IMG/VR virus record: IMGVR_UViG_3300032093_000068
Location: 1-64,000 of that record
Direction: 5' to 3' (one strand)
DNA: 64,000 nt
DNA from: a virus
The notes beneath the pieces are model-generated. The model was not told the DNA's origin and made no database searches. It worked only from the letters and a program-made list of their open reading frames with translations. Positions 87-9,231 of the stretch are shown here, in pieces (the first letter of the stretch is position 1; each line of letters begins with the position of its first letter). The translations under genes and the position numbers were made by a program.

Positions 87-160
87 GGTGAGATAATTCA
101 GTTGGTTAGAATACATGTCTTATACACATGCAGTCGTGGGTTCAAGTCCCACTCTCACTA
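87..160 (+). tRNA. tRNA-Ile(TAT)
   Basis: Acceptor GGTGAGA/TCTCACT; anticodon arm CATGT-ctTATac-ACATG; T-loop TTCAAGT. Confidence 0.9.
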
Positions 161-166
161 CATAAT

Positions 167-241
167 CTTCAGGTAGTTCAGTTGGTTTAGAATTTTTGTC
201 TGATACACAAAGGGTCGGCGGTTCGAGTCCGCCCCTGAAGA
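167..241 (+). tRNA. tRNA-Ile(GAT)
   Basis: CTTCAGG/CCTGAAG; TTTGT-ctGATac-ACAAA; GGTTCGAGTCC. Confidence 0.92.
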
Positions 242-247
242 CACAAA

Positions 248-319
248 GAGCGGTTGGTCGAGCGATTAGGCACCTCCCTGCAAAGGAGAATAACGTGGGT
301 TTGAATCCCTCACCGCTCT
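248..319 (+). tRNA. tRNA-Cys(GCA)
   Basis: GAGCGGT/ACCGCTC with U discriminator; anticodon loop ctGCAaa; atypical T-arm (GTTTGAATC). Confidence 0.8.
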
Positions 320-325
320 CGATAC

Positions 326-398
326 GTACCTCTGGTGAAATGGTTTATCATAAACGGTTCCAACCCGTTTGTTCAGGGTTCGAATCCTTGGAGGTATG
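326..398 (+). tRNA. tRNA-Trp(CCA)
   Basis: GTACCTC/GAGGTAT with G73; AACGG-ttCCAac-CCGTT; GGTTCGAATCC. Confidence 0.85.
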
Positions 399-403
399 CG
401 AAC

Positions 404-477
404 ACCCCCTTAACTCAGTGGTTTAGAGTGATTGTTTTACAAGCAATATGTCCTAAGTTCGATTCTTAGAGGGGGTA
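404..477 (+). tRNA. tRNA-Val(TAC)
   Basis: ACCCCCT/AGGGGGT; ATTGT-ttTACaa-GCAAT. Confidence 0.9.
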
Positions 478-480
478 CAA

Positions 481-573
481 TAGGTTGATTGGGGAATACC
501 ATTTTGGTGGAGGTGATCTAAGTAACGCCAATCATAAAAATAGATGTCCACGCACCCATCTTCTATTTTCCTA
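481..573 (+). ncRNA. Unassigned structured RNA between tRNAs (three-way junction with possible pseudoknot)
   Basis: TAGG/CCTA closing stem, TGATTGG/CCAATCA, AAAATAGATG/CATC..CTATTTT; loop TCCAC (547-551) is complementary to GTGGA (507-511). Confidence 0.5.
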
Positions 574-577
574 TTTC

Positions 578-665
578 GGGTAGGTTACCGTAGCGGCGAA
601 CGGCTCTGACTGTAAATCAGAGGTCATACGACTAAACATCGGGGGTTCGAGTCCCTCCTTACCCA
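578..665 (+). tRNA. tRNA-Tyr(GTA)
   Basis: GGGTAGG/CTTACCC; TCTGA-ctGTAaa-TCAGA; long variable arm. Confidence 0.92.
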
Positions 666-668
666 CTA

Positions 669-856
669 TGAGTAAGAGATACTCAACAGTCTTTTGTCCA
701 AGACTCATTTAACAATGGACTAGCAGAATGTCTACGGCTAGAGTGAGACATCGTGGGATAAAGAGACTGACACAATCTCTCCCAGTAGTGTTGGCTGTTT
801 TTATGGGGGACGCCCCGCAGGTTTTTAAGATAATAGAAAACCGAATTAACTACTCA
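669..856 (+). ncRNA. Unassigned multi-pseudoknot structured RNA (about 190 nt)
   Basis: TGAGTA/TACTCA closing stem; CAGTCTTT/AGAGACTG; GTCCA/TGGAC; TAGC/GCTA; crossing pairings ATGTCT/AGACAT, ACTC/GAGT, TGGGA/TCCCA, AGAGAT/ATCTCT. Confidence 0.6.
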
Positions 857-881
857 CCTATAATCTCAAGGTGGGGAACAT

Positions 882-1000
882 GGTCAGGTGGCGGAATTGG
901 TTAGACGCTGCCGTGGGGCGACACCACTCTATAAAAACAGCATAAGCTCTCGCAATTAGGCGCCAGTTGCGAGGTGCAGGTTCGAGTCCTGTCCTGACTG
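882..1000 (+). ncRNA. tRNA-like RNA without a canonical anticodon arm
   Basis: Acceptor GGTCAGG/CCTGACT, Leu/Ser-type D-arm and T-arm GCAGG-TTCGAGT-CCTGT; the anticodon/variable region is replaced by about 65 nt containing two hairpins. Confidence 0.7.
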
Positions 1001-1009
1001 CATATTTTA

Positions 1010-1087
1010 TGATGAGCTTTCCTACACCCAGGGTTAGTGAATTTTTTAAAGGGGAACATACGGTACACAAGCCCGTAGGCTCATCAA
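1010..1087 (+). ncRNA. Unassigned structured RNA between tRNAs
   Basis: TGATGAGC/GCTCATCA closing stem, TTCCT/AGGGG(AA), TACGG/CCGTA. Confidence 0.45.
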
Positions 1088-1090
1088 AAT

Positions 1091-1163
1091 TGTCCTGTGG
1101 TGGAATTGGCAACACGTCTGATTTTGAGTCAGAAGATTTCAGGTTCGAGGCCTGACGGGACAA
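1091..1163 (+). tRNA. tRNA-Gln(TTG)
   Basis: TGTCCTG/CGGGACA; TCTGA-ttTTGag-TCAGA. Confidence 0.9.
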
Positions 1164-1171
1164 CTTTTTAA

Positions 1172-1246
1172 GCATCATTAGCTCAGAGGCAGAGCGCTAG
1201 TCTTCCAAACTAGAGGTCGAGATTTCAAAATTCTCATGGTGCTCCA
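1172..1246 (+). tRNA. tRNA-Gly(TCC) with encoded CCA
   Basis: GCATCAT/ATGGTGC-T-CCA; CTAGT-ctTCCaa-ACTAG; atypical T-loop. Confidence 0.88.
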
Positions 1247-1249
1247 AAT

Positions 1250-1322
1250 GCCGCCATAGTGAAACGGTTCATCACGGAACTCTCATAAGGTTTAATTACA
1301 AGTTCGATTCTTGTTGGCGGTA
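1250..1322 (+). tRNA. tRNA-CAT (Met, or lysidine-modified Ile2)
   Basis: GCCGCCA/TGGCGGT; GAACT-ctCATaa-GGTTT. Confidence 0.85.
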
Positions 1323-1354
1323 CGAAATATATTTTGTATATTTGTATAAATTAT

Positions 1355-1427
1355 GGAACAGTAGCCTAGTTGGTCAAGGCACTCGCCTGAAGAGCGAGCA
1401 ATAAAAGTTCGATTCTTTTCTGTTCCA
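1355..1427 (+). tRNA. tRNA-Phe(GAA)
   Basis: GGAACAG/CTGTTCC; CTCGC-ctGAAga-GCGAG. Confidence 0.9.
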
Positions 1428-1436
1428 CATAAATAC

Positions 1437-1523
1437 GGAGGTGGTCCGAATGGACGAGGAAGCTATCTTGAAAATAGTTGGTCGGAGAAATCTGGCCTGG
1501 GGGTTCGATTCCCTTCTCCTCCG
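1437..1523 (+). tRNA. tRNA-Ser(TGA)
   Basis: GGAGGTG/CTCCTCC with G73; GCTAT-ctTGAaa-ATAGT; long variable arm. Confidence 0.9.
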
Positions 1524-1531
1524 CTAAATAT

Positions 1532-1606
1532 GGTGTTGTTAGTTCAGTTGGCGAGAACGTCTGATTGTGGTTCAGAAGGTCATGAGTTCGAATCTCATAC
1601 GACACC
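1532..1606 (+). tRNA. tRNA-His(GTG)
   Basis: G-1 plus GTGTTGT/ACGACAC-C; TCTGA-ttGTGgt-TCAGA. Confidence 0.92.
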
Positions 1607-1614
1607 CTAATAAT

Positions 1615-1697
1615 GAGTAAGTGGCGAAACTGGTAGTACGCGCCGTCCTTAGAAGCCGGTGGATAATTCCGTGTAGGTTCGAATCCTACCTTACTCA
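1615..1697 (+). tRNA. tRNA-Leu(TAG)
   Basis: GAGTAAG/CTTACTC-A; anticodon loop ctTAGaa; variable arm. Confidence 0.9.
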
Positions 1698-1729
1698 CAA
1701 AAAAATTATACTCACATCTAAAAAAAATT

Positions 1730-2026
1730 ATGGATTTTTTTGAAAAAAACAAAGTAAAAACTTTTGATGATTTGGTTTTTAAACCACATGGAAATTATTG
1801 GAATGTTGGAGCAGTCCAGGCGGTAATGGAGTTCCCTAATGGTCATTGTATTTCTGTTGTCGGAGCAGGTCAAGGACTTTACGGCGATGGCGTGAATACT
1901 TTTGAAGTTTGGGCTAGTTGGCAAGAAGATGTCCAAGGATATCTTACAAAAGACGAAGTTACCGAAGTTATGCTTGAAACTCAATCAAAATCAAAGCATG
2001 TTCCAACTGTGGGTTATTCAGTTTAG
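1730..2026 (+). CDS. Hypothetical phage protein inside the tRNA array
   Basis: 98-aa ORF with A-rich leader and plausible composition. Confidence 0.75.
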   Translation: MDFFEKNKVKTFDDLVFKPHGNYWNVGAVQAVMEFPNGHCISVVGAGQGLYGDGVNTFEVWASWQEDVQGYLTKDEVTEVMLETQSKSKHVPTVGYSV

Positions 2027-2036
2027 AAAATAAAAA

Positions 2037-2109
2037 AGTCCCTTAGCTCAACGGAAGAGCACTTGAATACGGATCAAGAGGTTTGTGAGTTCGAATCTCA
2101 CAGGGACTT
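2037..2109 (+). tRNA. tRNA-Arg(ACG)
   Basis: AGTCCCT/AGGGACT; CTTGA-atACGga-TCAAG. Confidence 0.88.
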
Positions 2110-2115
2110 CAAAAC

Positions 2116-3354: not shown

Positions 3355-4023
3355 ATGAGCAGTATTAAAATAGAACTATCAAGTTCATCTCAAAATATTT
3401 GGATCACCTCAGATACCCATTATGGGCACAAAAATATTTGTCGTGGAGTTACAGATTGGAGGCTAGACGATGGATCAATTCCTATTGATCAGACTAGAGA
3501 TTTTAAATCCATAGATAGTATGAATGCATCTATTATCAATAATATTAATGAATTTGTCAATCAAGATGATATTCTGTTCCATCTTGGTGACTGGTCTTTT
3601 GGAGGTTTTGAGAACATTCGTAATTTTTGGGATAGAATTGTTTGTAAAAACATACATTTGGTTTTAGGTAATCACGATCATCACATTGAAAGAAATAGAG
3701 GTGGATGTAAAGGATTATTTAAAAGCGTAAATGATTATGTTGAATTATCTGTTGGTGGTAAGAAATTTGTTTTAATGCACTACCCCCTCTCATCTTGGAA
3801 TGGTTTAAATAAAGGTGTAATCCATCTTCACGGGCATGTTCATTTACCAAACCACAAAAAATTTGGTAAAGGTCGCAAAATGGATGTCGGAATTGATGGT
3901 TCCACAGAATTTAGACCTTATAATTTAATTAAAGAGATTATTCCGATTATGATTAAACGTAATATCATTTCAGATATGGAGTTTGATCACCATACTGATG
4001 AATTAAAAAATGTTGTTGGTTAA
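3355..4023 (+). CDS. Calcineurin-like metallophosphoesterase
   Basis: SDTHYGH, HLGD, GNHD, HYP, HGHVH. Confidence 0.9.
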   Translation: MSSIKIELSSSSQNIWITSDTHYGHKNICRGVTDWRLDDGSIPIDQTRDFKSIDSMNASIINNINEFVNQDDILFHLGDWSFGGFENIRNFWDRIVCKNIHLVLGNHDHHIERNRGGCKGLFKSVNDYVELSVGGKKFVLMHYPLSSWNGLNKGVIHLHGHVHLPNHKKFGKGRKMDVGIDGSTEFRPYNLIKEIIPIMIKRNIISDMEFDHHTDELKNVVG

Positions 4024-5105: not shown

Positions 5106-5858
5106 ATGGAAAGAAAATTAGCAAGTATTAGAATTATATCTGATTTGCGCCCAATTGAGGGTGCTGATAAAATAGAATTGGCCATCGTTGATGGATGGAA
5201 AGTAGTTGTTGCAAAAGATGTAGGTCACAAAGTTGGTGACAAAGTTATTTATTGTGAGATTGACTCATTTTTACCTATTAAACCTGAATTCGAATTTTTG
5301 CGAAAATCATCATATAAAAAGATGGCCGACGGTTCTGAAGGTTTTCGTTTGAGAACCGTAAAACTTCGCGGACAGGTTAGTCAAGGTTTGATTTTACCTT
5401 TATCGTTAATTAATTACACTAACTTAGATTTTAAGGTTGGTATGGATGTAACTATGATGTTGGGGATTAATAAATACGAGCCTCCAATTCCGGCAGAACT
5501 TGCTGGTAAGGTAAAAGGTTTGTTTCCATCGTTTATACCTAAAACCGACGAGGTGAGATGTTTATCTGAAGAAACCGAATTAATAACTGAAGATGGTATT
5601 AAAACAATCAAAGAAATTTGTGAAACTAAATATATTGGTAAAGTTTTGAGTTTTAATGTTTTTGAAAACAAAAACGAAATGAACACCATAAATTCTCACT
5701 CAGTACAAAAAAATAATAATGATTGGTATGAAATTGAATTAATTTCAGGTAAAATTCTTAAACTAACAGGTAACCATAGAATTTGGTTACCAGAACTTAA
5801 TTGTTATAGAGAAGTTAAAGAACTTTTAGGTGATGAAGTTGTAAAAATAACGGATTAA
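5106..5858 (+). CDS. RNA ligase (DRB0094-type) N-extein fused to N-half of a split intein
   Basis: RKLASI..I.PIEGADKIE, RLRTVKLRGQVSQGL, FPSFIPKTDEVR, then intein block A CLSEETELITEDG (Cys at nt 5559) and block B LKLTGNHRIW; stops after about 99 aa of intein. Confidence 0.9.
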   Translation: MERKLASIRIISDLRPIEGADKIELAIVDGWKVVVAKDVGHKVGDKVIYCEIDSFLPIKPEFEFLRKSSYKKMADGSEGFRLRTVKLRGQVSQGLILPLSLINYTNLDFKVGMDVTMMLGINKYEPPIPAELAGKVKGLFPSFIPKTDEVRCLSEETELITEDGIKTIKEICETKYIGKVLSFNVFENKNEMNTINSHSVQKNNNDWYEIELISGKILKLTGNHRIWLPELNCYREVKELLGDEVVKITD

Positions 5859-5907
5859 GTTCTGTTTTTTATATAAAGTTAGATATTTATATGTAAATAA
5901 ATATGTT

Positions 5908-6876
5908 ATGGAATGTCTAATTTGTAAAAAAGAGTTTATAAAAAAAAATCATTTAAAAATACATATTAATCATCATCACCCTAATAATAAGCTTGAAAAT
6001 GAGGTTCTATATTTAAAATCATTAGAAACCAAAATACCTATTAATTTGATCGATATTAAAAATATGTATTTGGATGGGAGTACTATTGATGATATCAAAA
6101 AAAAATATGGTGTTAGTGTTGGTAATTATATTTTATTATTGGGTATTAAACGAACTGCTAGCGAAAGTAAAAAAACTAAACAATATAAAGACAAATTTGA
6201 AAAAACTTTAATTGATCGCTACGGTGTTAAAAATCCTTCTCAATCCGAAGATGTGAAATTAAAAAAGAAAAACACATTTTTTAAAAACTATGGATATGAA
6301 AACAATTTTAATAATGAAACAATAAGAAAATATGCAATTTCAAAAATTAACTACACCGAAGTATTGAAAAAAAGTAAAGAAACTTTAAAGTTAAGATATG
6401 GCGATAATATAATTAATCCAGCTCAACTAGGTTGGGTTAAAGAAAAAATATCAAAATCTCAAAAAGATAGATTATCTAAACTATCAACAGATGAATTAAG
6501 ATCTTTAACTGAAAAGGCCAGAGGTAATTTAAAATATGTTAGTAAACAAGAATTAAGGATACAATCAATTCTAAATGAATTAAATATTACTTATACGGCA
6601 AATGGTTTTTTATATAGTTATAATTGGGATTTAATTTTTAAAAATAAAATCATAATTGAAGTTCAGGGGGACTTCTGGCATGGTAGCCCTAAATTATATA
6701 AAGAATCTGATATTTTACTAAATGGGTTAACCGTTAAGGATGTTTGGGAAAAAGATAAAAAAAAACTTAAATTAATCGAATCAAAAGGCTATAAGGTTTA
6801 TTATCTTTGGGAAAGTGATATTAATCATATGAGTGACTTTGAATTGTTAAATGCATTAAAAGAAATATTATGTTAG
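5908..6876 (+). mobile_element. Free-standing Vsr/DUF559-like (PD-(D/E)xK) putative homing endonuclease gene inside the split intein
   Basis: N-terminal C2H2 finger, three YGxxN-type repeats, C-terminal WDL..IIEVQGDFWHG..D.KK..GYKVYYLWE; own TATTTAT motif at 5884. Confidence 0.8.
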
Positions 6877-7538
6877 ATAAGATTAAAACAATAAAAAAAA
6901 TAAAAAATAAATCTAAGCGTTACGATGTTGGGGTTGAAAATGTAAATAATTTTTACGCTAATGGTGTGCTTGTTCATAATTGTCAGAACTTATCTTCTGA
7001 GTATGAAGAAATGAAAAAACATACCTACTATGTTACAGAAAAACTTGATGGTTCCTCTGCAACATTTTATGTCAAAGATGGTGAGTTTGGTATATGTTCT
7101 CGTAATTTGGAACTTTTAGAAAGTGAAACCAACACATTTTGGAGAGTTGCAAGAATTTTGGATTTAGAAAATAAAATGAAAAGTTTGAATAAAAATATTT
7201 CATTTCAGGGTGAACTTATAGGTGAAGGTATACAAGGAAATCCATATAAAGTTATCGGTCAAACTGTTAAATTTTTTAATATATTTGATATTGATAATTT
7301 CAAATATTACGAATTCGCGGATTTTATTTATGTTATGGCTTTTTTAGGTCTTAGTTACGTACCTGTATTATCTGAGGATTTCAAACTACCTGAAACTATT
7401 GATGAATTAATTAACTTTGCAGATGATAAATCACAATTAAATCAAAATTTTGATAGAGAAGGTATCGTTATTAGGTCTTATGACAAATCAGTTTCATTCA
7501 AAGTCATCTCAAACAAATTTTTACTTTCAGAAAAATGA
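6870..7538 (+). CDS. Split intein C-half (37 aa) fused to RNA ligase C-extein
   Basis: YDVGVENVNNFYANGVLVHN|C (junction 6980/6981); ligase motifs EKLDGSS, QGELIG, FNIFD, REGIVIR, FKVISNKFL. Confidence 0.92.
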   Translation: MLDKIKTIKKIKNKSKRYDVGVENVNNFYANGVLVHNCQNLSSEYEEMKKHTYYVTEKLDGSSATFYVKDGEFGICSRNLELLESETNTFWRVARILDLENKMKSLNKNISFQGELIGEGIQGNPYKVIGQTVKFFNIFDIDNFKYYEFADFIYVMAFLGLSYVPVLSEDFKLPETIDELINFADDKSQLNQNFDREGIVIRSYDKSVSFKVISNKFLLSEK

Positions 7539-8149
7539 TAGATAATATAGTTGCAATAAAAGATTTACTAACTTTTGAATCTGAGGATGATTTTTATCAT
7601 CTTCAGATTTTGAAACGCAAAAAAGAAAATCCTGAGCTTGGATCAAATTCTTATGTGGTCAAAACATATTACATCAATTCAATAGAATATTTGGATTCAA
7701 AAATTGATGAAATTATTCATCTTTGTAATTTCCATAATGCGAGGGCTTGTATAAATCTTAATCGTAGGTCATATGAAAAAATCGCTTTTCATACCTTAAA
7801 AAAGGTTACTGATCAAATTATGAATAAGGATTTTAAATCGGTTAGAAAGGCTTACGAATCTATCTGCGGTTCATTTTCAAATGAAAAAGATAAAAAATGG
7901 ATTATTGATATTGACCATAAAGATTTTGATTTGAGCGAGGTTAAAAGACATGTATTTTACAATAATTTAATTTCAAACATCCAAAGTTTAATTTTTCAAA
8001 CCGGTAAAGATGATACTATAACCACAATTCCGACCAAAAATGGTTTTCACCTAATCACAAGACCTTTCAATTTAGAAGAATTTAGAAAAATGCACGGTGA
8101 AAAAATTGCGGTTCAAAAAGATAATCCCACCCTTTTGTATATGTCATAA
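7535..8149 (+). CDS. Hypothetical protein with archaeo-eukaryotic primase (AEP)-like motifs
   Basis: hhhDhD (WIIDID) and PTKNGFHLIT resemble AEP motifs I and II. Confidence 0.5.
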   Translation: MIDNIVAIKDLLTFESEDDFYHLQILKRKKENPELGSNSYVVKTYYINSIEYLDSKIDEIIHLCNFHNARACINLNRRSYEKIAFHTLKKVTDQIMNKDFKSVRKAYESICGSFSNEKDKKWIIDIDHKDFDLSEVKRHVFYNNLISNIQSLIFQTGKDDTITTIPTKNGFHLITRPFNLEEFRKMHGEKIAVQKDNPTLLYMS

Positions 8150-8169: not shown

Positions 8170-9231
8170 ATGTTAGAAACCTTAGAGAAATATTATAACG
8201 AGGGATTACTTTATAAACAAGTACATCCAACTTTACCATTAACTATATGGAACTATAATGAAAAGGTTCAATATGAAAATCTGTGGGACGATATTACTCT
8301 AATGTGCCGTGGTTTGGTAACTGATGACAATGGGAATGTTGTTGCTCGCCCGTTTAAAAAATTTTTTAATCTTAGTGAACAAAAACACTCCGCAACCGAA
8401 AAGTTTGATGTGTATGATAAATTAGACGGCTCACTTGGTATTTTTTTCTATTATAACGGTGGTTGGATTATGGCAACTCGCGGATCATTTACTTCTGATC
8501 AAGCGGTTAAGGGGTATGAAATGATGTTTAAATATGATTTCGCGTCCTTACATAAGGATTATACTTATTTGTTTGAAATCATATACAAACAAAATAGAAT
8601 AGTGTGCCAATATGATTTTGAAGATGTCATTCTACTTGGTATGATAAACACCAAAACCGGTCAAGAAGTTGATTTATACTCAGACAATTATGACGTTAGA
8701 TTTTCTAATATGATAAAAAATTTGGGGTTCAAATTGGCCAAAAAATACGATGGAATCAAGGACTACAAAGAACTTAAATCTATGATAAAAGATAATGAGG
8801 AAGGTTTTGTTGTTAAGTTTTCTAACGGAGATAGAATAAAAATAAAAGGTGATGAATATTTGAGATTACATAAAATAATGACACAAATATCGACCACCTC
8901 AATATGGGAATGTCTTAAAAATGGAGATGATATAGAATCTTTACTTAAAGATGTTCCTGACGAATTTTATAAAAAAATAAAATTATATGTTGGAAATCTA
9001 AAATATCATCATTTTCAAATATCTGAATATTGTGGTAAAATGCACGATTATTTCAGATATGGAAAATATAATGATGTCGATCCTGAACCAACCAAATCTG
9101 AATTTGCAAAGTTCGTTCAAACTAATATTAATAAAAGAGAATTACATTCTGTAATGTTTGCAATGTGGGATAGAAAAGATTATAGTCAAATAATATGGAA
9201 ATTAATTAAACCAAAATATGAAAAACTTTAA
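8170..9231 (+). CDS. rnlA: T4 RnlA/Rnl1-type RNA ligase
   Basis: CRGLV, RPFKKFFN, KLDGSLG, ATRGSF, FEII, EGFVV, KIKGDEY. Confidence 0.88.
   Translation: MLETLEKYYNEGLLYKQVHPTLPLTIWNYNEKVQYENLWDDITLMCRGLVTDDNGNVVARPFKKFFNLSEQKHSATEKFDVYDKLDGSLGIFFYYNGGWIMATRGSFTSDQAVKGYEMMFKYDFASLHKDYTYLFEIIYKQNRIVCQYDFEDVILLGMINTKTGQEVDLYSDNYDVRFSNMIKNLGFKLAKKYDGIKDYKELKSMIKDNEEGFVVKFSNGDRIKIKGDEYLRLHKIMTQISTTSIWECLKNGDDIESLLKDVPDEFYKKIKLYVGNLKYHHFQISEYCGKMHDYFRYGKYNDVDPEPTKSEFAKFVQTNINKRELHSVMFAMWDRKDYSQIIWKLIKPKYEKL

Follow-up and report, generated by a model that had tools for sequence, protein, structure and literature searches.

A probable fractured RNA ligase gene with a predicted split intein and a free-standing endonuclease gene in a viral contig

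Organization of the ligase locus

The window analysed here, a stretch of 64,000 nucleotides with a G+C of ~ 0.30, is the first 64 kb of the 85.5-kb viral contig IMGVR_UViG_3300032093_000068. It holds a run of three genes in which the two halves of a predicted RNA ligase, each carrying one piece of a putative split intein, flank a free-standing gene for a homing endonuclease (Table 1). An earlier note on this DNA had read open reading frame (ORF) 5106-5858 as the N-terminal part of an RNA ligase followed by an intein N-fragment and a stop, and ORF 6870-7538 as a 37-aa intein C-fragment followed by Cys+1 and the ligase motif EKLDG, and both assignments, coordinates included, were confirmed by profile searches. 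Indeed, aa 5-99 of the 250-aa N-half match the OB domain PF21189 (E 6e-36), aa 1-162 align with positions 6-181 of the 398 positions of the RNA ligase profile phrog_968, and the end of this half gives a PF14890 match below the cut-off. The 222-aa C-half begins with a PF14890 match, continues with PF09414 (RNA_ligase) at aa 52-213 (E 1.7e-23) and covers positions 169-393 of phrog_968; its motif I, EKLDG, lies at aa 57-61 with the lysine nucleophile at aa 58 (7041-7043). Across the two halves the domain build of an Rnl5 enzyme is present, with an N-terminal OB module and then a C-terminal adenylyltransferase domain with KxDG, and by their sequence the two ORFs are the putative halves of an Rnl5-type (DRB0094/NgrRnl-like) RNA ligase, which would be expected to seal duplexes nicked between a 3'-OH RNA end and a 5'-PO4.

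The N-half reads ..KTDEVR/CLSEETELI.. and the C-half ..NGVLVHN/CQNL.., where the slash marks the predicted splice point. When aa 1-151 of the former are joined to aa 38-222 of the latter, as the earlier note had proposed, the extein parts (151 + 185) give a protein of 336 aa, uninterrupted relatives being 336-342 aa long, and the joined sequence is colinear with these intein-less ligases, neither lacking nor gaining a residue at the junction (alignment A2). The family pattern expected at this point was likewise found, all 144 full-length intein-less relatives (144/144) reading KTDExR[I/V/L]QN. All three genes lie on one strand, the endonuclease ORF being in another frame, and the Vsr-like nature of the enzyme encoded between the halves agrees with matches to phrog_3339 and to the solved structure 3R3P. 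The stop of the endonuclease gene and the ATG of the C-half overlap by 7 nt, ATGTTAG (6870-6876), and this overlap suggests translational coupling.

Table 1. Features of the fractured ligase locus, of its neighbourhood in the window and of related cassettes on other contigs (a slash marks the insertion point).
Feature	Position	Strand	Basis or remark
N-extein, ligase aa 1-151: OB domain and first nucleotidyltransferase element, ending KTDEVR	5106-5558	+	PF21189, phrog_968
Intein N-piece, 99 aa	5559-5855	+	Cys1 codon 5559-5561; PF14890
TAA stop closing the N-half	5856-5858	+	ORF listing; contigs of 4/4 runs without difference
AT-rich spacer, 49 nt, 5' of endonuclease gene	5859-5907	+
Free-standing homing endonuclease, 322 aa	5908-6876	+	phrog_3339, DUF7487, zf-C2H2, Vsr-like domain
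Intein C-piece, 37 aa, ending ..LVHN	6870-6980	+	PF14890 profile positions 120-155
C-extein, 185 aa plus stop	6981-7538	+	Cys+1 6981-6983; EKLDG; remaining nucleotidyltransferase motifs; PF09414, phrog_968
tRNA gene cluster, n = 14	87-2110		just upstream of RNA-repair gene run
Metallophosphoesterase	3355-4023	+	same-strand gene run
phrog_14949 protein	7535-8149		same-strand run, 3' of C-half
T4 Rnl1-type RNA ligase, uninterrupted	8170-9231	+	phrog_562, E 1.7e-67; motif DKLDG
Same cassette at motif I of T4 Rnl1-type RNA ligase	L047: 3671-6221; L045: 346-954		EKVDG/C
Same cassette in PF09414 RNA ligase with HNH N-terminus	L048: 420-2825		EKMDGEN/C
Same cassette in ATP-dependent DNA ligase	L051: 432-3080		RKMDG/C

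The locus therefore has adjacent host halves on the same strand with a free-standing endonuclease gene between the intein pieces, which is the layout of a fractured gene. With a probability of roughly 0.85, we read it as a mobile cassette, made of a split class 1 intein and a free-standing Vsr-like (EDxHD) endonuclease, which lies inside an Rnl5-type ligase and whose host protein would be rejoined by trans-splicing. This reading, already proposed in the earlier note, is carried by the domains, by the colinearity with both intein-less and contiguous-intein relatives, by the splicing residues and by independent contigs.

Position of the insertion in the ligase active site

The insertion point was mapped onto the Naegleria gruberi ligase NgrRnl (5COT) through L007 which, with L009, is a syntenic intein-less ligase reading KTDEERVQN. 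L007 aligns with 5COT over 337 residues (E 6e-75), with KTDEER, KLDG and the later motifs in register, and KTDQER/VQN corresponds to K144-R149/V150 of NgrRnl, as counted back from the Lys170 nucleophile. The cut is thus found directly after the Arg149 equivalent, 20 residues before the catalytic lysine. According to the accessible part of the NgrRnl study (PMC7261155), Thr145 forms a hydrogen bond with the ribose of ATP, Arg149 contacts the gamma-phosphate of ATP in a bidentate manner, and the R149A mutant keeps 15% of nick sealing. Given that the Arg149 equivalent contacts the gamma-phosphate, the cassette is predicted to sit inside the ATP-binding element of the ligase. The OB-domain ATP contacts and the Arg149 equivalent fall on the N-half; the lysine and motifs III, IV and V fall on the C-half. 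At the position of Cys+1, the intein-less relatives carry Ile (101), Val (42) or Leu (1) and in no case Cys (n = 144), hence Cys+1 travels with the intein. Two loci considered as possible intein carriers, L009 and L010, proved to hold uninterrupted ligases.

Splicing residues, fold and predicted splicing of the intein

The sequence of the two pieces displays Cys1, TxxH, a terminal HN and Cys+1, as in class 1 inteins, and the pieces are found on separate polypeptides with the break at the loop where inteins carry their endonuclease. Cys1 lies at aa 152 of ORF 5106 and is Cys in all 18 alleles at site a, the site of the window, as well as in 3/3 site-b alleles. Block B, TGNH, occupies aa 221-224, its Asn and His being present in 18/18 site-a N-halves; among 148 members of the wider lineage described below, Cys1 and the block B Thr and His are each conserved to at least 90%. 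For the C-piece, 22 C-halves were compared (18 from site a and four from other hosts), and M1, I11, S15, Y18, D19, F28, A30, N31, L34, H36 and N37 are invariant in all of them, so that the Tyr-Asp of block F (Y18-D19) and the His-Asn of block G (H36-N37) are kept in 22/22. At +1, all 18 C-halves from site a have Cys; the four others have either Ser or Cys there. PF14890 aligns with aa 162-245 of the N-half (profile positions 5-91 of 155) and with aa 2-37 of the C-half (positions 120-155 of 155), and the C-piece reaches 36 bits, above the cut-off, in a six-frame search of the genome. The net charge of the N-piece is -6 and that of the C-piece +5.

Furthermore, the 99-aa and 37-aa pieces are colinear with the 136-aa contiguous intein which the relative P0121 carries at the same site, and P0121 has a Met exactly at the position where the C-half of the window starts. 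Contiguous mini-inteins (P0121, P0122) are thus also held by the Rnl5 family. As a side observation, the contiguous mini-intein relatives P0121, P0207 and P0361 all keep a Met where the split forms begin their C-half, and this may mean that the halves fused secondarily once the endonuclease gene had been lost, or that a Met was already there and made the split easier. With the AlphaFold model of P0121 as query, Foldseek returned, after ligases, the Npu DnaE, Npu DnaB, NrdJ-1 and Ssp DnaE inteins (E 2e-4 to 5e-4); these matches are modest, with template modelling (TM) scores of 0.40-0.46 by target, because the model is weak over the intein. At the sequence level no solved intein was significantly similar, the best being NrdJ-1 (E 0.11).

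In the proposed mechanism, the acidic N-piece and the basic C-piece would be drawn together by their complementary charges and form a single HINT domain, and splicing would then follow the standard four steps, with an N-S acyl shift at Cys1, a trans-thioesterification onto Cys+1, cyclisation of the Asn in the terminal HN and finally an S-N shift. The product would be a 336-aa ligase reading ..KTDEVR-CQNL.., which would differ from its uninterrupted relatives only by a junction Cys in place of Ile/Val. Since one polypeptide carries the nucleophile and the other the OB/Arg149 ATP contacts, neither half alone would be expected to adenylylate. The endonuclease would for its part cut intein-less ligase alleles in co-infecting phages, and repair would copy in the cassette together with the Cys+1 codon.

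It could be argued that the intein pieces bring the halves together and then do not splice, in which case the ligase would be a non-covalent two-chain enzyme and the intein a clasp. In favour of this, the Val of the window at extein position -2 is unusual (1/18) among site-a alleles, 17 of which have Glu. However, every class 1 catalytic residue, Cys+1 included, is kept across 18-22 diverged alleles, and Cys+1, found in 0/144 intein-less ligases, is kept only alongside the intein, which makes an intein that merely clasps improbable in our view.

Conservation of the split allele

The stretch is contained in twenty sequencing runs of as many studies, and eight of these runs may be the source sample. 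The remaining twelve are freshwater or lake metagenomes from 2016-2024, and contigs of four of these (X9, X10, X11 and X14) were compared with the window base by base. X9 and X10 each cover all 2433 bases of the locus by a single contig, which differs from the window in 6 substitutions and 0 indels. In X11 and X14 separate pieces cover the stop (5856-5858) as well as the overlap (6870-6876) and show no differences at the contig level. In a 495-base contig of X11, position 5553 runs on into 7026, so that the intein and endonuclease region is missing; one side of the joint comprises 20 letters, and there are 6 mismatches. We considered this joint as an allele of an intein-less relative living in that lake and set it aside as too weak, with 20 letters on one side only.

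The relatives were collected as a set of 234 proteins from two near-length searches. Among them are 46 N-halves cut at KTDExR/C (including the window's own two clusters), 19 C-halves with the intein C-piece at their start, 144 uninterrupted ligases, and 25 others, among which are truncated proteins and site-b halves. The N-halves are 55-79% identical to the window over the extein and 53-87% over the intein. Several clusters of N-halves and C-halves share the size of their longest contig (e.g. 65,014 and 26,878), which suggests that they are paired genes. In public records the halves bear names such as 'RNA ligase (TIGR02306 family)', 'tRNA-binding EMAP/Myf-like protein' and 'hypothetical protein'.

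With the intein N-piece as query, 13 loci were fetched, two of them on one contig, and 12 were analysed. The full layout of N-half, endonuclease and C-half is present in five of the 12 (L041, L052, L047, L048 and L051); the contigs of L044 and L046 end inside or after the endonuclease gene and five more end earlier. No contiguous intein was seen at any of the 12 loci, seven of whose contigs end before the full layout. In the six complete loci, window included, the 3' end of the endonuclease gene overlaps the start of the C-half, by 7-38 nt. The closest locus, L041 on a 319-kb contig, has the same 7-nt overlap and is 58%, 62% and 54% identical to the window in N-half, endonuclease and C-half respectively. 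Between these two, the divergence at non-synonymous sites (pN) is 0.21 for the intein N-piece, 0.14 for the intein C-piece and 0.24 for the endonuclease, compared to 0.28-0.29 for the exteins. Given that pN is lower there than in the exteins, the intein and the endonuclease are at least as constrained as the ligase.

These figures bear on the idea that the ligase was inactivated by the insertion and is a decaying relic whose halves are being lost, the phage relying on the Rnl1-type ligase at 8170-9231. A second, intact RNA ligase 630 bases downstream and the existence of close relatives without the intein are what such decay would leave, but the three ORFs are intact in both the window and L041 at 54-62% identity, with saturated synonymous and low non-synonymous change. 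Moreover, 46 N-half and 19 C-half clusters have full coverage and the extein motifs are intact; decay is thus very improbable, and a conserved cassette remains our reading. As for the idea that a contiguous intein gene was broken up by an error of assembly or sequencing, which the contiguous relatives P0121 and P0122 might bring to mind and which the earlier note had named as a possible refutation, it is hardly credible since four independent runs of different studies from 2016-2024 (4/4) agree at the stop and the overlap, X9 and X10 span the locus with 0 indels, and the 322-aa ORF in the other frame is 62% identical in L041.

Some points weigh against the trans-splicing cassette as we propose it. 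Scanned alone, each intein half stays under the Pfam gathering cut-off of PF14890 (20.5 bits for the N-piece and 27.3 for the C-piece vs 35.8), and the Val at -2 departs from the Glu of the other site-a alleles. In the AlphaFold model of P0121, the ligase domains are good, but the predicted local distance difference test score (pLDDT) of 10-residue blocks of the intein ranges from 36 to 83 and falls below 50 at residues 152-176 and 287-313. The comparison with L041 gives pS values of 0.77-1.0, at which synonymous sites are saturated, and it is limited to pN/pS. No RNA run was found among the runs containing the stretch, and no clear Shine-Dalgarno sequence was visible by eye 5' of the endonuclease start or of the C-half start. 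Finally, a hairpin in the 49-nt spacer is not above chance (fold z -0.63, 46/200 shuffles being at least as stable). The values for the hairpin upstream of the endonuclease at other loci are z -2.43 for L041, -1.40 for L052 and -1.49 for L048, and TATAAATA is close to the L041 hairpin upstream of the endonuclease gene. A promoter and terminator scan was uninformative, with 30 promoter-like sites vs 34.3 expected.

Endonuclease and mobility

The endonuclease matches the homing endonuclease family phrog_3339 (E 3.8e-12); its match to Vsr is weak. Its N-terminus has a probable C2H2 zinc finger (zf-C2H2, E 0.028), and the protein also contains a DUF7487 region (34.9 bits). The best solved relative is 3R3P, which is I-Bth0305I, with E 1.8e-4 for the single sequence and E 9.9e-7 for a profile of eight cassette endonucleases, the latter giving E 0.036 for Vsr itself (1CW0). 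Within these eight, D241, E251, G254, H258, D268, W280 and D283 are invariant (8/8). The C-terminus is hence a Vsr-like nuclease domain with conserved acidic and His residues, and judged from its sequence the endonuclease looks active.

The nearest exteins to those of the window are intein-less, with 88-90% identity in the N part (P0049, 89% and 83%), and the nearest intein-bearing alleles reach 79% extein identity. In some pairs the intein is closer than its host, as in P0003 (87% vs 77%) and P0005 (82% vs 67%), and over 45 pairs intein and extein identity correlate with r = 0.59. Such a pattern would fit gain by homing or recent loss of the intein in the relatives.

A wider lineage of ligase inteins

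A full HMMER search with the 99-aa intein N-piece as query gave 543 representatives (50% identity) at E <= 1e-3, and with the limit at E <= 1e-10 their number is 228. Among the best 150, the match ends at most 30 residues from the C-terminus in 147, which are therefore taken as split. In the same 150, the insertion lies directly after K-x-[D/H/E]-G in 98 and one or two residues later in 21, mostly KxDGxN, which places 119 at or just after motif I, compared to 24 after K[T/S]DExR as in the window. The remaining seven are at other sites, three of which look by eye like a truncated or shifted motif I. Within this ligase-specialised lineage, the site of the window is thus in the minority. Of 148 members scanned with Pfam, the OB domain of Rnl5 is present in 64 and the T4 Rnl1 domain in 20, and the cassette recurs in further ligases (Table 1, last three rows). 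As judged by these matches, the lineage appears large, almost confined to ligases and nearly all split.

A quick tree of 149 N-pieces, from which P0335 and P0352 were left out as long and unrelated-looking proteins, requires 10 changes for site a compared to 23.4 when shuffled, with 0/500 shuffles as low, and the insertion sites thus cluster on it. The tree has two strongly supported branches only, and in it the small clade of the window adjoins motif I inteins. P0335 (2114 aa) matches residues 51-71 of the intein N-piece in 10 short stretches and is probably a protein of repeats with no relation to inteins.

It is conceivable, if rather doubtful, that the adenylylation pocket of polynucleotide ligases has become the special target of a single split-intein/endonuclease lineage, which hops among non-homologous families (Rnl5, T4 Rnl1-type, PF09414-type and ATP-dependent DNA ligase) with at least three cut points, the site of the window having arisen by an ectopic jump. 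Under this scenario the site K-T-D-E-E-R/ would derive from the motif I site K-x-D-G-x-N/, which has the same spacing and shares K at -6 and D at -4, and the donor may be the Rnl1-type ligase next door in these phages. If true, this would tie the targeting of an endonuclease family to a short coding pattern shared by its targets, and the lineage would give hundreds of diverged natural split-intein pairs.

In other phages, inteins related to that of the window occupy motif I of Rnl1-type ligases. The Rnl5 family also hosts LAGLIDADG inteins, PF03161 being found in 18 of 112 longer relatives, and these belong to a different lineage; the three that were aligned (P0123, P0126 and P0135) are at motif I and read EKxDG/C ... 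HN/S. Among annotated phages, a DNA search with the cassette gave one weak match and no close relative, the endonuclease as query found only three uncultured megaphage records at 28-29% identity, and the intein N-piece as protein query found only Bacillus phage SP-15 (two records, E 5e-4). In SP-15 (L054: 2327-5071, SP15_024 to SP15_026), a 158-aa ORF with a weakly intein-N-like end (tblastn E 5e-4, Pfam E 0.0035) precedes a 230-aa ORF, after which comes the large terminase, and this cultured phage may hold a fractured terminase. Xanthomonas phages X1 and BUDD, matched at 92% coverage and considered as carriers, encode an uninterrupted 388-aa ligase instead.

Carrier phage and gene neighbourhood

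The completeness of the 85.5-kb contig is estimated at ~ 28% (CheckV). The intact Rnl1-type ligase begins 630 bases downstream of the fractured one, and the order phosphoesterase, Rnl5-type ligase, Rnl1-type ligase is kept in related contigs of 195-320 kb. Given that these share the gene order, the carrier is a large, probably jumbo, freshwater phage.

Significance and comparison with known systems

Through this locus an RNA-repair enzyme, cut within its ATP-binding element, would join the short list of genes fractured by split inteins, and the cassette would stand as one branch within a large lineage of natural split inteins that has specialised on ligases and is so far undescribed. A ligase that stands beside a tRNA array and is active only after the predicted splicing could tie its activity to the expression of a mobile element. 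Natural split inteins are raw material for protein ligation tools, and because this lineage is far in sequence from the inteins in use it is a plausible source of new split-intein pairs.

The ligase of the window has the N-terminal OB and C-terminal adenylyltransferase domains of NgrRnl (5COT, 6VT0-6VTG) and of Deinococcus radiodurans DraRnl. These are single polypeptides without an intein, whereas the ligase of the window is made as two chains with a predicted Cys at the Val150 position. With the split inteins NrdJ-1 (8UBS) and Npu DnaE (4KL5) the window shares Cys1, TxxH, HN and Cys+1, as well as the canonical split, in which a long N-piece faces a C-piece of ~ 36 aa; it differs from them in host and in flanks (R at -1 and CQN after the splice site) and has no significant sequence similarity to them.

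I-Bth0305I (3R3P), described in the accessible part of PMC3239194 as the prototype of EDxHD or Vsr-like homing endonucleases, resembles the endonuclease of the window in its C-terminal nuclease domain, in its acidic and His residues, and in being multidomain with an N-terminal DNA-binding part. It is however encoded in a group I intron of recA, whereas the gene of the window is free-standing between intein halves, and its product carries, unlike I-Bth0305I, a DUF7487 region along with a probable C2H2 finger.

The earlier note knew of no such layout in an RNA ligase and supposed a new insertion site. No publication describing an ATP-dependent RNA ligase with an intein turned up in our literature search (InBase, other intein collections and the supplements of Dassa et al. 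2009 lying outside this search), and the accessible parts of intein surveys name RtcB-type ligases and an archaeal DNA ligase as hosts and no ATP-dependent RNA ligases; further works drawn on are PMC4760082, PMC5259590, PMC7824862 and 10.1101/2025.01.02.630785. The term 'RNA ligase' occurs 0 times in the text of Dassa et al. 2009 (PMC2677866). The claim of novelty holds in part, the Rnl5 host with its KTDE(E/V)R/C site being particular, but a fractured phage DNA ligase was listed in 2009 and the lineage is common in public metagenomes, for the most part at motif I of ligases.

Fractured genes were defined by Dassa et al. 2009 (PMC2677866), the accessible part of which covers gp41, IMPDH, DnaE, NrdA, NrdJ, terminase and one DNA ligase locus, with gp41-1, gp41-8, NrdJ-1, IMPDH-1 and NrdA-2 among the loci and the fractured phage DNA ligase coming from Lake Gatun. 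The same part of that paper describes split-intein pieces of opposite charge and a hairpin upstream of the endonuclease start, where a fractured gene in its sense would carry a regulatory hairpin, a late-promoter element or both. Like these loci, the window has adjacent same-strand enzyme halves with split-intein pieces and a free-standing Vsr-like endonuclease between them, overlapping downstream coding regions, phage origin, a freshwater source and oppositely charged pieces. Unlike them, its host is an ATP-dependent Rnl5 RNA ligase, its cut comes after the Arg149 equivalent and not at motif I, and the upstream hairpin is unsupported. The intein of the 2009 DNA ligase may belong to the same lineage as that of L051. 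The fractured-gene layout has thus been known since 2009, while the Rnl5 host and the cut point in the Arg149 element appear to be undescribed.

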